64,000 bases of DNA, taken from NCBI GenBank assembly GCA_943913905.1, contig CALTZZ010000001.1, forward strand, positions 24,542 through 88,541, given 5' to 3'. Position numbers and translations under genes: made by a program. Positions 3,966 to 64,000 of the stretch are shown one piece after another (the stretch's first letter is position 1; each line of letters begins with the position of its first letter). The DNA is from an uncultured Dermabacteraceae bacterium. GTDB lineage: Bacteria; Actinomycetota; Actinomycetes; Actinomycetales; Dermabacteraceae. The notes beneath the pieces were generated by a model. The model did no database searches. It was given only the letters and a program-made list of their open reading frames with translations, and was not told the origin of the DNA.

Positions 3966-5663
3966 ATGACAACGCTTCGCATCGACGCATCGTGGGTCGA
4001 TTTCGCGCTCGTGGCTTTGTACTTCCTCTTCGTCCTCGGAGTGGGCTGGTACGCCAAGCGCGGTGTTTCCAACTCGATTGAATTCTTCCTCTCGGGCCGT
4101 TCACTCCCCGCGTGGGTTACGGGCCTCGCGTTCATTTCCGCGAACCTAGGCGCCGTCGAAATTATGGGAATGAGCGCCACGGGCGCCCAGTACGGCTTCC
4201 CGACCATGCACTACTTCTGGGTGGGCGCTGTTCCCGCGATGCTGTTCCTTGGCGTCGTGATGATGCCGTTTTACTACGGCTCGAAGGTGCGCAGTGTTCC
4301 GGAGTTCATGCGCATGCGTTTCGGTACTGGCGCTCACTTGGTGAACGCGCTGAGCTTCGCTCTCGCGCAGCTCCTTATTGCTGGCGTGAACCTCTTCCTT
4401 CTGGGCACGATTGTGAACCGTCTTCTGGGCTGGCCCATGTGGGTGGCCCTCATCGTTGCTGCGGCGATCGTTCTGAGCTACATCACGCTCGGTGGTTTGA
4501 GCGCCGCGATCTACAACGAGGTTCTGCAGTTCTTCGTGATCGTGGCGGCGCTGCTGCCGCTCACCCTCATTGGTCTGCACCGTGTTGGCGGGTGGAGCGG
4601 CCTGAAGGAGAAGGTCACGAACGACGGCATGCTGGGTGCCTCGCAGCTTCACACTTGGCCGGGCCAGCAGCTCTCGGGCTTTGAATCGCCCCTGGTTTCT
4701 GCGATCGGCATCGTGTTTGGCCTGGGCTTCGTGCTGAGCTTCGGCTACTGGACCACGAACTTCGTGGAGGTGCAGCGTGCGATGGCGTCGAAGTCGATCA
4801 CGGCAGCGCGTATGACTCCGATCATCGGTGCGTTCCCGAAGATGTTCATCCCGTTCATCGTGATCGTGCCTGGCATGATCGCCGCGGTGCTCGTGGGTGA
4901 CCTCACCGAATACAAGCAGTTGAGCACGGCTGGCAACGCCGAGGCGGCAGGCGCCATGGGCATCACCTACAACGACGCCCTGCTCCTCCTGATGCGCGAT
5001 GTGCTCCCCACGGGCCTGCTCGGCATCGCTATCGCTGGTCTTCTCGCAGCGTTTATGGCCGGCATGGCGGCGAACATTTCCGCCTTCAACACGGTTATTT
5101 CGTACGACATTTGGCAGCAGTACATCGTCAAGGGCAAGGAAGACGGCTACTACCTGAAGGTGGGCCGTGTGGCCACGGTTGCCGCGTCCATCATCGCGAT
5201 CTTCACGGCGCTTATCGCCGGGAACTTCTCGAACCTTATGGACTACCTGCAGACACTGTTCGGGTTCTTCAACGCCCCGCTGTTTGCCACGTTCATCCTC
5301 GGCATGTTCTGGAAGCGGATGACCCCGACCGCAGGCTGGTCTGGCCTCGTGGCAGGCACGCTGGCGGCCGTGACCCTGTGGACGTCGTCGGAGTTCTTCG
5401 CCCTCTTCACTCTACCCGGCCAGGGCCTCGCATTCCTCGCGGCAGCCACCGCGTTCGTGGTGGACATCGTGGTCTCGGTCGTCGTCACCCTCGTGACGAA
5501 GCCGAAGCCGGAGCATGAACTGCGCGGCCTCGTGTATTCGGAAACCCCGAAGACCGAGCTCGTGGACCCCGAAGAGAAGGACATGCCGTTCTGGCGCCGC
5601 CCCGTTCCGATGGCGGCCATCGGCTTGGTTCTCGTGATCGCACTCAACGTGATCTTCGCGTAA
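3966..5663 (+). CDS. sodium:solute symporter (SSS) family transporter
   Basis: 565 aa, multi-TM, with N-terminal SSS signature region (GRSLPAWVTGLAFISANLGAVEIMGMSATGAQYGF). Confidence 0.85.
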   Translation: MTTLRIDASWVDFALVALYFLFVLGVGWYAKRGVSNSIEFFLSGRSLPAWVTGLAFISANLGAVEIMGMSATGAQYGFPTMHYFWVGAVPAMLFLGVVMMPFYYGSKVRSVPEFMRMRFGTGAHLVNALSFALAQLLIAGVNLFLLGTIVNRLLGWPMWVALIVAAAIVLSYITLGGLSAAIYNEVLQFFVIVAALLPLTLIGLHRVGGWSGLKEKVTNDGMLGASQLHTWPGQQLSGFESPLVSAIGIVFGLGFVLSFGYWTTNFVEVQRAMASKSITAARMTPIIGAFPKMFIPFIVIVPGMIAAVLVGDLTEYKQLSTAGNAEAAGAMGITYNDALLLLMRDVLPTGLLGIAIAGLLAAFMAGMAANISAFNTVISYDIWQQYIVKGKEDGYYLKVGRVATVAASIIAIFTALIAGNFSNLMDYLQTLFGFFNAPLFATFILGMFWKRMTPTAGWSGLVAGTLAAVTLWTSSEFFALFTLPGQGLAFLAAATAFVVDIVVSVVVTLVTKPKPEHELRGLVYSETPKTELVDPEEKDMPFWRRPVPMAAIGLVLVIALNVIFA

Positions 5664-12490: not shown

Positions 12491-13638
12491 AGCCCCGACA
12501 TCAGTTGCGCGCCGGTGAGGCCCACCCAGGTGCCGAGCACGGCACCGATGAGCCCATACAGGACGCCCACGGGAGCAAGAGTCTTGCTATATGCGGCGGC
12601 CACGACAGGCGCGGATGCCACACCACCGATGTTGGCCGTGGACGCGACCGCGATCGAGAACAGTTCGGTCTTCGTGAGCTTCGCGTACGCGACCATGATG
12701 ACGGCGTGAATCAGGAGCACAATGAGGCCCACGAGGAGGTAGACCGGGGCCTGGGTCAAGGCCGAGAAGTCGGAATCCGCCGCGATCGTGCCGATCACGA
12801 TGAACAGCATGAGGGTCGCAACCTCGTCCGAACTCGCGATCTTGCCCAGCGGGGTCTGCGCCACGATCAGGCCCAGGACCGAAACAATGATGATGGTCCA
12901 GGCGCTCGCGTTCAGCACTTCGCCAACCTCGGGCAGAAGCTCACCGAGCCAGATCGAGAAGCATGCCACGGCGATGGAACCGAATGCCACTGTGGCGAGC
13001 GATTCGAGCGTGATCGGCTTCTTGTCTTCCGCCAGTTCCTCAATGTGGCGAGTGAGGTAGGAATCCTTCGCGCGGGTGAAGCGGTTGAAGCGGTCAGAGA
13101 CGGCAACAGAGGAAAACATCGCCATGAGCCACAGTGAGTACACAATCGTGTCGGTAATGAGGGCGTAGCCGAAGAGAGATTCGGGTCCCTTCACGATCTC
13201 CTGCACGGCGACCATGTTCGCGCTGCCGCCGGTCCACGAACCGAGCAGTGCGCCAAGGGTCTTCCACGAGTCTTCACCAAGCGCCCCTTGGAACGGAATG
13301 TAGACGAGAACCATCGCGGCGAACAGCGACGCGGACGCTACAGCCATCGTGAGGAGCAGCTTGGGCCCCAGTTTGATGATTTGCCGTAAGTCGCAACCGA
13401 ACAGGAACAAAAAGATCATTGCGGGCAGCGCAACGTCTTTGATCGATCCCATAGCCGCCCGGGTTTCGTCTGCTTCGCCGAATACGCCGAGCGAGTTGAG
13501 GGCCGCGCACACGAGGTACATGAGCACCATGCCGGGGACGTACTTGAAGAACTTCGAGCCTGTGGTGCGCTCGAGCACAATGAGGATGGCAGCGAGCCCT
13601 AAGAGGACTCCCACCATCACGAGGCCATCAGTAATCAC
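12487..13638 (-). CDS. DUF819-family polytopic membrane protein (putative transporter)
   Basis: Highly hydrophobic and of DUF819 (YjcL-like) size. Probable GTG start at 13638 after an AAGGAGA RBS. The track ORF extends to 13773. Stop overlaps the epimerase start. Confidence 0.7.
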   Translation of the reverse strand: MITDGLVMVGVLLGLAAILIVLERTTGSKFFKYVPGMVLMYLVCAALNSLGVFGEADETRAAMGSIKDVALPAMIFLFLFGCDLRQIIKLGPKLLLTMAVASASLFAAMVLVYIPFQGALGEDSWKTLGALLGSWTGGSANMVAVQEIVKGPESLFGYALITDTIVYSLWLMAMFSSVAVSDRFNRFTRAKDSYLTRHIEELAEDKKPITLESLATVAFGSIAVACFSIWLGELLPEVGEVLNASAWTIIIVSVLGLIVAQTPLGKIASSDEVATLMLFIVIGTIAADSDFSALTQAPVYLLVGLIVLLIHAVIMVAYAKLTKTELFSIAVASTANIGGVASAPVVAAAYSKTLAPVGVLYGLIGAVLGTWVGLTGAQLMSGL

Positions 13639-42915: not shown

Positions 42916-43540
42916 ATGAGCATTCGTCCGCAGTGTCGCAACTGCGGCGGGAGCGAGCGCAACACTGAGTGCGCTCAGTGCCTGCGGATCATCTATAGCT
43001 CCGGAGGCGGCGGTTGCCCCTTCCACAGCTCCACTCGCGAGTCCTGAGATAGGCACAGAATTACGCACTGTCTTCGATTCCCATGGCATCACGGGAGAAA
43101 CCATCCGCGAGGTCATTGACTCTTTCGATGCGCTCCCCCGCCCGCGTCCCCTCGCCATCACAGCATCAGTCTCCCCCATGCTCATCTCCATTACTGACGC
43201 CACATCACACTTCGCGGTATCGCTCACCGATCAACCGTTCTACCTCTCGCTTGCCCCGTACCGCACGTACACCCATCCGTGCCGGGATCATTCGCTGGGG
43301 GGATGCCAAGGGGAGCTCGCGGATACGGATCTGCATGTGTTGATCGAATCGGATTCCGGCGACACCCTGGTGGATGCGAACGCCACTACGTACGAGAACG
43401 GCTTTGCCGGATTCTGGGTTGCCCGAGACCACAAGGGAACCGTGACCGTCACGACCGAAACCGAACGGGCCACCGCCCGATTCGATTCGAGCACGAACGG
43501 TTCCACGTGCCTCACCGACCTGAAGCTCACGGCTGCGTAA
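42916..43540 (+). pseudogene. lipoprotein gene with a +1 frameshift at codon 5
   Basis: ATG 42916 reads MSIR then shifts frame. Frame +1 from 42920 encodes a textbook lipoprotein leader ...SVATAAGASATLSALSACGSS (lipobox LSAC) and continues into track ORF 43178..43540. Deleting one C in cgtccgc gives MSIRRSVATAAG... Confidence 0.6.
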
Positions 43541-61936: not shown

Positions 61937-63550
61937 CTACTCCGCCTTACGATACGCACGACTCCGGCTGCTCGGAGGCGCAGTGGCCACCACGACACCA
62001 TCAGTCACCAACCCACGCAAGAGCCCCCGCAACGCCGGCAGGCTTTTACCCGTAAGATCAGCAAGTTCTCGAATAGTGCGTTCTTTCCGCACACTCAAAG
62101 CAGCCAAGACAGCTTTTTCGCTCGGTGTGAGGTCGCGTACGCGCTCGCTCTCACCATTGCGAGAGCCCTGCACCCGAGTGGCACCCCCAGGCACACCTAA
62201 GGCGGGCGTAGTCTCCGGCGCTTCGAGTTGTTCCTCTCGCGAGCGGTAGATCTTCACGACAGCCTGCGTCAACGTCGATGCACTGAAATCAGGCTCGCGC
62301 AGGCCGCGCTCACGCATCGCCGCGAGCATGCGGGGGATACCCGACCCCTGATTTTCCGAGACAGTTCCCGAATCAGTGATGCGGGGTGTTGCAAGAAGCA
62401 GTTTCGCAAGCAGAGGATTCCGTGCGTCCGACACCCCACTTGCCGCTTCCTCGAGTGTCACAGTGCCAGTGAAGCCGCCCGGGTTCGTAACCTCAACGCG
62501 GTCAGGAAACACATCCACTTGGACCTGCTGCCCGCGCGAGCGAACACTGTAATCCCGGTGTGTCACAGCATTAGTGATCGCTTCCCTCAACACATCCTCA
62601 GGGATTTCCAACACATCGATCCCCGCAGTCCCCCGCACCTCGCGGGCGCGCCTGAGGTTCTTCGCCACTGCCTCTACCGCGTCACTCACCATGAGTGGAA
62701 TCGGCCCCTCACACATCACTCGATCCACAAAACGCACCGTCGGATCCGAAGACTTCTCAACCGTGGGGTGGACCGCAACATCCACGTACAACTGCGGAAA
62801 CTCTTGCTGAGGGTATGCCCCCACCACAAGATAACCAGCGAAAGTCACCTGACCCTGCCGGTCCATGATGCTGAGTCGCGTTAATTGCCCGGCAACATCA
62901 TCCCGTTCGAGCCCCTCGAATGCACGTGACCCCTGCGCACGCTTGAGCTTGAGAACCCCGGCAACGAGCGCTTCCGACAAATCTTCCACGGCAACCCCGG
63001 GGACGGCGGTGTCATCTACCGTCTCGGCAATTGACTGCGCATGCATCAGGTACACGGCGTAGTCACTCATGCGCTGGTCATGGTCATCTACTCTGATAAA
63101 GCTGCCGTTTTGCCTCCCCTTGCTCGTGACATAGCACGGGAGCACCAGCCCTTTCGCTTGGCGGATCGAGTCAATTTCAATCCCCACAATCGAAGCCCCG
63201 TCGATGATTGTGCGCACGATGCGGTAGTTCGGGACTGGATCAACTTTGGGATCATTGCTCATCCCAGACACGAATGCATCGATGATCCGCCCCGAATCAA
63301 ACCCATCCGCCGGAGCAAACCCGGACTTTTCGTCCAACCCCAACACGATGACGCCGCCGTCAGTGTTCGCGAATGCCGACACTGAGTCCCATAGCGATTT
63401 CGGCAGTGCATGGCCTGCGGCTTTTACTTCCACGCGAGCGTCGTCACTGCCTTGGGCACGTGCGCGATAGACGTGGTCCCTCACATCATCCTCAGTCACG
63501 GCCTCAGTGTAGAACACTGAGCTCCTCAGTGTATAGAGTGAGGGCCGCAC
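61937..63550 (-). CDS. AlbA_2 (Schlafen-like) N-terminal domain fused to an HATPase_c-like ATP-binding domain and a C-terminal wHTH
   Basis: ARVEVKAAGHALPKSLWDSVSAFANTDGGVIVLGLDE matches the AlbA_2/divergent AAA signature. The C-terminus has an HTH. GTG 63550 is uncertain because the 5' end lies in a heptamer-repeat cluster. Confidence 0.65.
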   Translation of the reverse strand: MRPSLYTLRSSVFYTEAVTEDDVRDHVYRARAQGSDDARVEVKAAGHALPKSLWDSVSAFANTDGGVIVLGLDEKSGFAPADGFDSGRIIDAFVSGMSNDPKVDPVPNYRIVRTIIDGASIVGIEIDSIRQAKGLVLPCYVTSKGRQNGSFIRVDDHDQRMSDYAVYLMHAQSIAETVDDTAVPGVAVEDLSEALVAGVLKLKRAQGSRAFEGLERDDVAGQLTRLSIMDRQGQVTFAGYLVVGAYPQQEFPQLYVDVAVHPTVEKSSDPTVRFVDRVMCEGPIPLMVSDAVEAVAKNLRRAREVRGTAGIDVLEIPEDVLREAITNAVTHRDYSVRSRGQQVQVDVFPDRVEVTNPGGFTGTVTLEEAASGVSDARNPLLAKLLLATPRITDSGTVSENQGSGIPRMLAAMRERGLREPDFSASTLTQAVVKIYRSREEQLEAPETTPALGVPGGATRVQGSRNGESERVRDLTPSEKAVLAALSVRKERTIRELADLTGKSLPALRGLLRGLVTDGVVVATAPPSSRSRAYRKAE

Positions 63551-63635
63551 TGAGGCCTCACTGACTACTCACACATACCTCCTTGCCTGCGCTAATACTT
63601 CAGTTTTGTCACTGACCCTCAGTGACGAATGTGAA
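63480..63635. repeat. cluster of 8-9 CTCAGTG/CACTGAG heptamers in direct and inverted orientation
   Basis: cctcagtcac, cctcagtgt, acactgag, cctcagtgt, gagtgagg, cactgagg, cctcactga, tcactgacc, ctcagtgac within about 150 bp. Confidence 0.8.
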
Positions 63636-63855
63636 GGCTTCACATCGAGCAAAGAGGCAACGATCACCCACTCGACGCTAAAGCGACACACACGACCAGC
63701 TTTCGCTTCCATGCCGCTTCACTCGCCAAAGACCTCACGGTACTACCCCTAATTCAATGTGAACGCACCAAGCCCTTTTCCCGGTACAATGCGCACAGTG
63801 GGAAATTGAACTCTTTCAATTCTGCCCCTCACCCTTCTCGCAGATAGTTCCTCAC

Positions 63856-64000
63856 ATGGCTCACTCCCACGAATCTCGTTCGCAATCTCGAAATACTGCT
63901 GCCTCGACGTCCGCAGGTCGCGCTGAAGAATCCACAGCGAAAAACAATCTTAAGGCCTGCTCAGCACTGCTGATTCTTGGGTGGATTGCCTGCATTTTTT
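63856..64000 (+). CDS. partial ORF (first 48 codons) of a possible membrane protein running off the right edge
   Basis: ATG 63856 (MAHSHESRSQSRNTAASTSAGRAEESTAKNNLKACSALLILGWIACIF). The flank is AT-richer. Confidence 0.25.
   Translation, partial: MAHSHESRSQSRNTAASTSAGRAEESTAKNNLKACSALLILGWIACIF

Follow-up and report, generated by a model that had tools for sequence, protein, structure and literature searches.

A helix-phased palindromic array before a Schlafen-ATPase gene of an uncultured Dermabacteraceae bacterium: a probable regulatory element and candidate autoregulatory operator

What purpose does a dense cluster of short inverted repeats serve when it lies across the 5' end of one chromosomal gene? 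We address this question for a locus of an uncultured Dermabacteraceae bacterium, where such a cluster covers the start of a gene encoding a protein with Schlafen, ATPase and winged-helix parts. The DNA analyzed is a 64 kb stretch of contig CALTZZ010000001.1 (the window); coordinates are given on its plus strand, and the gene lies on the minus strand. A preliminary description had noted the repeats as copies of the heptamer CTCAGTG/CACTGAG and had offered sites for a replication initiator or partition protein, or a multi-site operator, as their possible roles. Our comparative data favor the operator. We consider it very probable that the array is a regulatory element to which some protein binds; on balance, and with less assurance, we favor a cooperative, helix-phased multi-site operator over a leaderless promoter, read by the winged helix of the gene's own product in negative autoregulation.

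The repeat unit and its register

The cluster itself holds up to scrutiny. Five exact copies of the heptamer, at 63503(+), 63515(-), 63525(+), 63548(-) and 63618(+), and four copies with one mismatch, at 63491, 63557/63559 (overlapping) and 63610, lie within 63491-63624, so that the eight or nine copies first counted in ~150 bp occupy about 135 bp. Both palindromes of the preliminary description were verified as perfect, CTCAGTGT-aga-ACACTGAG at 63503-63521 and GTCACTGA-ccc-TCAGTGAC at 63608-63626. The claim that this density exceeds chance is also sustained: the window contains 16 exact heptamers where 8.2 +/- 2.9 are expected, a number reached in 0 of 100 shuffles, and at least five copies of any 7-mer within 260 nt are found at the array alone, the maximum otherwise being four (1265 windows of that length across the 64 kb). 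The window-wide excess is due to the array itself, because the 10 exact copies outside 63380-63624 are at background level (about 8 expected for the whole window), and when one mismatch is allowed the heptamer is not in excess across the window (174 against 189 expected). A count of heptamer frequency, which had been proposed as a check, thus finds clustering at the array and chance level elsewhere in the 64 kb, and the heptamer is not a genome-wide repetitive extragenic palindrome (REP). A dispersed repeat of the REP or miniature inverted-repeat transposable element type could be ruled out, the heptamer being at background outside the array and the composite unit, described below, being found only there. 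One further heptamer pair, CACTGAG-tgcg-CTCAGTG at 42963-42980, has the opposite arrangement to the units of the array and was judged to be a chance occurrence.

The part of the preliminary description that needs revision is the nature of the repeat. Heptamers do cluster, but the free heptamer is not what is repeated, being one half of a palindrome of 18-20 bp that keeps strictly to a 21-bp register. The predicted functional unit, TCAsT-N6/7-AsTGA, repeats every 21 bp upstream of the minus-strand gene start, and its consensus is CCTCACTGTATACAGTGAGG (matrix from 43 units of other loci). In the 64 kb the pattern matches at 63504, 63526, 63600 and 63609 only, four matches against a mean of 0.18 and a maximum of 1 in first-order Markov simulations. 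Scored with the matrix from other loci only, unit 2 reaches 29.9 bits, whereas the best score in any of 30 simulated windows is 16.6. A matrix match at 13038 was rejected as an additional site, since its 15.4 bits fall within the null range; it lies inside a 428-aa open reading frame (ORF).

Positions of the units are best given relative to the start codon proposed below, all on the minus strand. Unit 1 (GCTCAGTGTTCTACACTGAGG; 63502-63522, -23 to -3) is an intact TCAGT-N7-ACTGA and overlaps a putative -10 box. Unit 2 (CCTCACTCTATACACTGAGGA; 63523-63543, -44 to -24) is likewise intact and near the family consensus, and unit 3 (TCAGTGAGGCCTCAGTGCGGC; 63544-63564, -65 to -45) is irregular, with two half-sites in a shifted arrangement. 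At register positions 4 and 5 (63565-63606, -107 to -66) the units have decayed, and this part is not conserved in other loci. Unit 6 (CGTCACTGAGGGTCAGTGACA; 63607-63627, -128 to -108) is the intact distal palindrome and stands exactly six periods (6 x 21) from the proximal one. Half-site centers are about 11 bp apart, or one helical turn, and units are 21 bp apart, or two turns, which is the geometry expected of dimers bound on one face of the DNA. Inside the decayed blocks, at 63560-63584 on the minus strand, an AAGGAGG is followed after 5 nt by a four-codon mini-ORF (GTG AGT AGT CAG TGA), which is probably fortuitous in the window and which other loci do not conserve.

Gene start, promoter and conservation of the array

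Where the gene begins determines what the array overlaps. The ORF at 61937-63550 on the minus strand encodes 537 aa from GTG 63550, and the database protein (P0001) has 526 aa from GTG 63517; the array covers both of these starts, in line with the remark in the preliminary description that it overlaps the annotated one. An alignment of 41 family members points to a third. Their N-termini mostly read M/V-T-(D/E)-E-E-L, equivalent to GTG at 63497-63499 on the minus strand (protein V-TEDDV...), so that the true start is most likely GTG 63499, with a product of 520 aa, rather than 63517 or 63550. Longer gene calls in the alignment carry a repetitive extension of the form SLYxxxSSxxY(T/S)(E/D)xV. 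Collinsella homologs align from residue 18 of the 537-aa ORF. Buchananella has the same "peptide" about 100 nt upstream of the real N-terminus, with a ribosome-binding site of its own, GGAAGGAG, in between, and Arcanobacterium has an in-frame TAG four codons ahead of its ATG. Because of these three observations we read the N-terminal extension as the DNA array translated in frame. Since the array often stays in frame, many database entries have overlong N-termini that run into it (P0010, P0012, P0014, P0015, P0018, P0021, P0022, P0025, P0031 and P0050), and the annotated start of the window gene at 63517 is probably one such overlong call. The earlier suspicion that the true start lies downstream of the annotated one is hence borne out by comparison.

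Upstream of GTG 63499 the sequence reads TACACT-GAGGCC-GTG. The hexamer TACACT (63506-63511, minus strand), a putative -10 element of the TANNNT type, lies 6 nt before the start codon. TANNNT is found at -12 to -7 in eight of nine Actinomycetales loci, as TACACT in the window and five others, and across loci TACACT almost invariably makes up the right half of unit 1, a 6-nt spacer separating it from ATG or GTG. Variants are TAAAGT in the Actinomyces metagenome-assembled genome, TAGAGT in Brachybacterium, and a spacer of 8 nt in Corynebacterium oculi. In the upstream units the equivalent position is mostly AAGT or TAGT, which indicates an additional constraint on unit 1. The sigma-A -10 motif of actinobacteria is TANNNT, and in Corynebacterium glutamicum one third of mRNAs are leaderless, 21% of these with a GUG start (PMC3890552, PMC6448022). 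The distance from TANNNT to the start codon agrees with the leaderless promoters of actinobacteria described in the same reports. Given a -10 hexamer 6 nt before the start codon, the transcript is probably leaderless and would begin at 63499. This would leave the array outside the transcript, on its upstream side, with unit 1 over the start and the -10 box.

Other genera show the same arrangement. Eight homologous loci of Actinomycetaceae, Brevibacterium and Corynebacterium carry two to six strict units each, directly upstream of the homolog and 21 or 22 bp from start to start: an Actinomyces metagenome-assembled genome (L005), Buchananella hordeovulneris (L006), A. slackii (L085), A. ruminicola (L086), Actinobaculum sp. 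313 (L087), Brevibacterium luteolum (L088), Corynebacterium oculi (L089) and Arcanobacterium wilhelmae (L091). The Brachybacterium locus (L007) has the related form CTCACTCTA/TAGAGTGAG. Homologs that bear arrays are only 41-50% identical. In the window and in six of the eight loci, among them L005, L085, L086, L087 and L091, the first unit begins exactly 21 nt before the start codon (-21); across loci units start at -21, -42, -63, -84 and -105. Within the homologous loci the unit pattern is found only at the gene, with the exception of a partial second array in A. wilhelmae. The neighbors vary by genome (Vsr, trxB, urocanase, mnh, hrpA), and as none is conserved across loci, array and gene form the only constant pair. 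The proposal that the array is the regulatory region of the gene gains from this comparison, in that the array is tied to this gene alone in all lineages examined.

Several features of individual loci deserve mention in their own right. In Actinobaculum sp. 313 (CP029033.1) the 3'-terminal 279 bp of a thioredoxin-reductase-like gene (trxB) are duplicated with 99.6% identity at 2508-2785 and 4761-5039 of the locus, flanking spacer, array and gene; this module of roughly 2 kb looks recently inserted or duplicated as a unit, judging from the duplication, and has no integrase inside. There are no flanking repeats around the window gene. The second array of A. wilhelmae (4735-4826) lies right past the stop codon, matches the first part of the upstream array at 88% identity over 70 bp and has no gene behind it; a tandem paralog since lost, or a recombination event, may have left it there. 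The A. ruminicola locus holds, at 4866-4977 on the minus strand and about 110 nt downstream of its Schlafen-ATPase gene, an Actinomyces-1 RNA (Rfam RF02928, 82.5 bits, E 1.8e-12), the only real match of the Rfam searches and one that is unrelated to the array. In the window itself, an ORF runs on the plus strand from ATG 63856 off the window end (63856-64000; MAHSHESRSQSRNTAASTSAGRAEESTAKNNLKACSALLILGWIACIF...) and includes a hydrophobic stretch that resembles a signal or membrane anchor; it probably represents a divergently transcribed neighbor, about 230 bp past the distal unit.

The candidate reader and competing explanations

The gene at 61937-63499 (minus strand) encodes a 520-aa protein with a Schlafen/AlbA_2 domain, a GHKL-type ATPase (HATPase_c_4) and a winged helix-turn-helix (HTH). 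Pfam places SLFN_AlbA_2 (PF04326) at the N-terminus (E 5e-10, 40.4 bits against a cut-off of 25.3), followed by HATPase_c_4 (PF13749; E 2.9e-22, 78.9 bits against a cut-off of 26), and the D-D-x3-E-x-K motif of the Schlafen domain is nearly invariant in the alignment. An AlphaFold2 model with a mean predicted local distance difference test (pLDDT) score of 85.7 comprises a Schlafen-like N-domain, a GHKL ATPase, a disordered linker (aa 424-454) and a winged helix of three helices and a beta wing (aa 459-518, pLDDT above 90). This modeled C-terminal winged helix, encoded at 61946-62125 on the minus strand, is the proposed reader of the array, and within it the recognition helix would be LPALRGLLRGLVT (62003-62041, minus strand). 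Foldseek returned 3LMM (DIP2311 of C. diphtheriae) for the full length, the GHKL domains of pyruvate dehydrogenase kinase (PDK) for the ATPase part, and the N-domains of SLFN11, SLFN13, SLFN5 and SLFN14, together with 2KYY, for the N-domain. The closest relatives, from Actinomyces and allies, are about 49% identical. NCBIfam gave no family match for the protein. Filing it as a defense system was not justified, as the PADLOC matches to Argonaute-associated proteins are weak and partial only, and membership of the MarR family was rejected because the score is below the gathering threshold and the 60-aa winged helix sits on a linker without the MarR dimerization helices. With SLFN_AlbA_2, PF13749 and a C-terminal HTH all present, the protein belongs to the "Schlatpase"-HTH class. 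The preprint that introduced the name applies it to the supradomain of Schlafen and GHKL ATPase, and counts 60,692 members, mostly small and with a terminal HTH (bioRxiv 10.64898/2026.05.29.728809).

Two observations suggest that the product's own winged helix recognizes the array. First, among 103 loci, all 21 with at least two strict units have the motif LR[PGA]xLR in the last winged helix, and strict units are lacking at the 81 loci whose helix is different, which come from Collinsella, Eggerthella, Adlercreutzia and plasmids; the Brachybacterium locus has the helix but only one strict unit. Secondly, one protein (L136) is overall nearest to a Collinsella-type protein, yet has the Actinomycetales-type helix and the corresponding type of array. 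This association of helix and motif, including L136, fits recognition by the product's own winged helix.

The mechanism that we propose would run as follows. One dimer of winged helices would bind each palindrome, reading half-sites about 11 bp apart, and the 21-bp spacing would place all bound dimers on the same side of the DNA with neighbors in contact. Unit 1 would hold the -10 box TACACT, its 21-nt block ending 2 nt before GTG 63499, and transcription would start from the start codon itself to give a leaderless mRNA. By binding the units cooperatively through its C-terminal winged helix, the product would occlude RNA polymerase and keep its own synthesis low. Oligomerization through the GHKL/Schlafen body would probably assist, and ATP may modulate it. 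Autoregulatory operators are recognized by the overlap of a site with the gene's own core promoter or start, and such an overlap is found here with respect to the predicted promoter. That the product binds the sites and alters transcription is predicted on indirect grounds, from the exclusive association of array and gene, the lack of a conserved neighbor and the covariation of helix and motif.

Our interpretation should nevertheless be taken with some caution, as several points weigh against it. The link between array and product is one of association, with the product as predicted binder and repression as the predicted effect, and the covariation of helix and motif follows phylogeny (Actinomycetales versus Coriobacteriia), which makes it weak as independent evidence. 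The C-terminal MarR_2 match is sub-threshold (E 3.9e-5, 24.2 bits against a cut-off of 27). The array of the window is partly decayed, with three units intact, one irregular and two lost, and may for that reason work less cooperatively than those of relatives. No -35 element is recognizable, and a scan with sigma-70 and terminator consensus sequences, which is little informative for actinobacterial promoters, was empty. In Buchananella and L136 the genes have a leader with a Shine-Dalgarno sequence, so that the leaderless layout is not universal. Finally, arrays without an adjacent Schlafen-ATPase gene imply that the sites either do not serve autoregulation exclusively or survive the loss of the gene.

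These orphan arrays came from a metagenome scan. The two-unit pattern was found in 120 stretches, of which 23 adjoin a family member and one a remnant (L186); in the remainder, the pattern falls in heptad repeats of coding sequence, in AT-rich tandem repeats with a 21-bp period or, in a few cases, in high-GC arrays by unrelated genes, which means that the short two-unit pattern alone is not specific at the scale of a metagenome database. Orphan arrays upstream of unrelated genes are found at L123 9705-9765 (the same sequence reversed in L200), before an NT5C deoxyribonucleotidase, and at L208 8945-9020 and L182 11220-11340; a PHO4 phosphate transporter and an AbrB-like membrane protein are further neighbors of such arrays. 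Control in trans, as part of a regulon, is one possible explanation of the orphan arrays, and their survival after loss of the gene another. In addition, array and first few codons are joined directly to the C-terminal winged-helix region at L125 150-760(-) and L159 4700-5500(-), and to a truncated stub at L186 4990-5150. With the Schlafen and ATPase domains gone in these three, the family appears to turn over quickly, and decay or rearrangement of array or gene is seen in L091, L125, L159 and L186. We considered L125 and L159, which keep array and HTH, as natural experiments, but they look like decaying genes and are not conclusive.

The orphan arrays of L123/L200, L208 and L182 lend some weight to an alternative in which some other, unlinked regulator uses the array as its operator and has the Schlafen-ATPase gene as one member of its regulon, all the more as the product is only the predicted binder. 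We consider this unlikely. In about 140 kb of genomic loci the unit occurs only at this gene family; the motif differs between lineages, yet its position before the gene is fixed and no neighbor is conserved; and the recognition helix of the product changes along with the motif.

It is also possible, with a rather low probability, that the array serves as a loading or storage platform, on which a Schlafen-GHKL filament assembles and from which it is released or activated, for instance in phage attack, transcriptional control being secondary. Five to six same-face sites per array would suit such a role, as would the presence of homologs on prophage-like contigs and beside restriction or Vsr genes and the weak PADLOC matches to Argonaute-associated proteins; moreover, a related Schlafen-GHKL-Argonaute fusion is reported to work by tetramer and filament assembly (bioRxiv 10.64898/2026.05.29.728809). 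A storage site, however, does not need the fixed overlap with -10 box and start codon that a repressor site needs, and filament formation and phage defense in this subfamily would be conjecture by analogy.

The iteron-like look of the array, the 279-bp flanking duplication in Actinobaculum and the partial second array in Arcanobacterium could speak for iterons or a recombination site of some mobile or replicating element, be it an origin of replication, a partition site or gene-cassette ends. This we regard as very unlikely, and the replication-initiator and partition roles of the preliminary description fall with it. Near the array of the window, rep, par and integrase genes are absent, as is an AT-rich unwinding region: the GC content is 0.52-0.57 across the region, and the array has the Schlafen-ATPase gene, an ArAE/FUSC exporter and a CAAX protease for neighbors. 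The lack of flanking repeats at the window gene, the chromosomal setting of the loci in many genera and the constant register relative to one gene family's start codon all argue in the same direction.

Little more can be said for RNA hairpins in a 5' leader, acting as attenuator, thermosensor or stability element, a reading to which we give a very small chance. The minus-strand RNA of 63640-63480 folds at -66.4 kcal/mol (z = -4.2 against shuffles), but strong folding is expected of any set of palindromes. The conserved TANNNT 6 nt before the start puts the array upstream of the likely transcription start, the variable center positions of the two half-sites are non-complementary in 14 of 42 units, so that pairing is not maintained, and Rfam returned nothing at E <= 1, whether for 62500-64000 or for the arrays of seven homologous loci. 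The strict 21-bp phase to the start codon is a matter of DNA geometry.

That the proximal repeats encode a genuine extension of the N-terminus, whether as in the 526-aa product or as in the 537-aa ORF, is hardly tenable: the frame is open from GTG 63550 and several database homologs are annotated with a similar extension (e.g. SLYxxxSSxxYTExV), but most begin MT(D/E)EEL, the Buchananella spacing and the Arcanobacterium stop codon noted above contradict it, the heptamer falls in different codon phases, and the 21-nt register runs on into non-coding upstream DNA.

Distant relatives and known systems

A candidate autoregulatory operator of this kind raises the question of how far such arrays extend in the family. 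Relatives from the Coriobacteriia also possess arrays, with other motifs. In Collinsella, (A/G)GAGA(T/G)A and its complement occur at conserved positions, with 5-8 exact 7-mers against a background maximum of mostly 3-5; a second Collinsella type has the array motif TCTCTCTAA, Adlercreutzia TCACTCAA/TTGAGTGA and Eggerthella TCACTTA. A plasmid homolog of Lactobacillus iners (L094 400-660) has 11 copies of the 11-bp TAATCGTGAGT. Among 47 testable distant homologs on prophage-like contigs, 22-43% identical, the top 7-mer count of the locus falls in the 260 nt upstream of the gene in 18. In L235, L224, L263, L232 and L260, tandem direct repeats of 10-11 bp form two or three clusters within 270 nt upstream; repeats of distant homologs include TTTTCGCACGA x7, GAGATTATCTT x9 and TTTTTCGTTCC x7. 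The gene of L263 adjoins a tRNA gene. These arrays are alike in principle to that of the window but different in architecture. A Legionella plasmid homolog behind parB in an operon has no upstream array. Upstream arrays are thus frequent in the family without being universal.

A far-reaching extension would be that cognate helix-phased arrays occur family-wide in roughly 60,000 Schlatpase-HTH proteins, that the array, beyond being an operator, is the site where the protein polymerizes into a poised nuclease/ATPase complex, and that array and gene form a mobile module that turns over as a unit. Mobility is pointed to by the fresh flanking duplications, the orphan arrays and the deletion derivatives with array and HTH; taken as a whole, we regard the extension as improbable. 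If true, each Schlatpase-HTH protein would have a private DNA address immediately upstream of its own gene, and should lineage-specific arrays hold family-wide, they would provide natural matched protein-DNA pairs for deriving a recognition code.

Our literature search on AlbA_2, HATPase_c_4, COG2865 and Schlafen-like proteins found no description of such arrays, nor did we find one in Rfam, and cognate upstream arrays go unmentioned in the available portions of two preprints on Schlatpase relatives (bioRxiv 10.64898/2026.05.29.728809 and 10.1101/2020.06.02.129163). Nor did we find an experimentally defined function or DNA target for proteins with Schlafen, GHKL ATPase and HTH. The array supplies a candidate DNA target for this large protein family, CCTCACTGTATACAGTGAGG on a 21-bp register, a candidate reading head in the C-terminal winged helix with the recognition helix xLR(P/G)xLRxL, and a corrected gene start. 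With these, binding, autoregulation and a dependence on ATP become directly testable, which would give a first experimental handle on a very large family. The comparison also shows that gene callers in many genomes extend the N-termini of these genes into the array.

Among known proteins, SLFN-pAgo (RzAgo), TrlG of Photorhabdus and DIP2311 (3LMM) share the supradomain of Schlafen/AlbA_2 and GHKL ATPase with the window protein. SLFN-pAgo is an antiphage protein that assembles into filaments and, unlike the window protein, has an Argonaute core and guide RNA as sensor (bioRxiv 10.64898/2026.05.29.728809). TrlG comes from the Photorhabdus temperature-restriction locus, is encoded after TrlF, lacks an HTH and works with TrlF (bioRxiv 10.1101/2020.06.02.129163). 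A trlF-trlG-like pair is present on a plasmid of Yersinia ruckeri (L095).

As for the DNA side, the nearest mechanistic analogs are the tandem ARG boxes, the omega, Fur and MetJ arrays and MarR-type autorepression. MarR-type autoregulators resemble our proposal in that a winged HTH dimer binds a palindrome over its own -10 box in negative autoregulation. Their operators have one or two sites, however, whereas the array is a phased row, and the winged helix of the window protein is a small appendage on a Schlafen-ATPase body of 450 aa. Plasmid iterons of the RepA, pi and TrfA type are also repeats of about 20 bp, helix-phased, beside the gene of the presumed binder, and can autoregulate, but they are direct repeats at an origin with DnaA boxes and an AT-rich region, in contrast to chromosomal palindromes with no replication gene. 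In the omega (pSM19035), Fur and MetJ systems, dense 6-8 bp motifs in direct and inverted orientation lie upstream of promoters and are read cooperatively by many copies of the protein, which resembles the heptamers in both orientations seen here. Omega heptads are contiguous with a 7-bp period and bound by ribbon-helix-helix dimers, whereas the heptamers of the window are palindromic pairs on a 21-bp period; 11-bp tandem arrays are found in the distant relatives L094, L235, L224 and L263.

The spacing is also that of the ARG boxes, tandem 18-bp imperfect palindromes with about 3 bp between them, which have a 21-bp period, overlap the promoter and are bound cooperatively on one DNA face by the oligomeric repressor ArgR. 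The two systems differ in that ArgR operators usually have two boxes, as against five or six in the arrays described here, and another half-site sequence, and in that ArgR is hexameric, unrelated to the Schlafen-GHKL-winged-helix protein, and controls a metabolic regulon, whereas the array would serve its own gene only.

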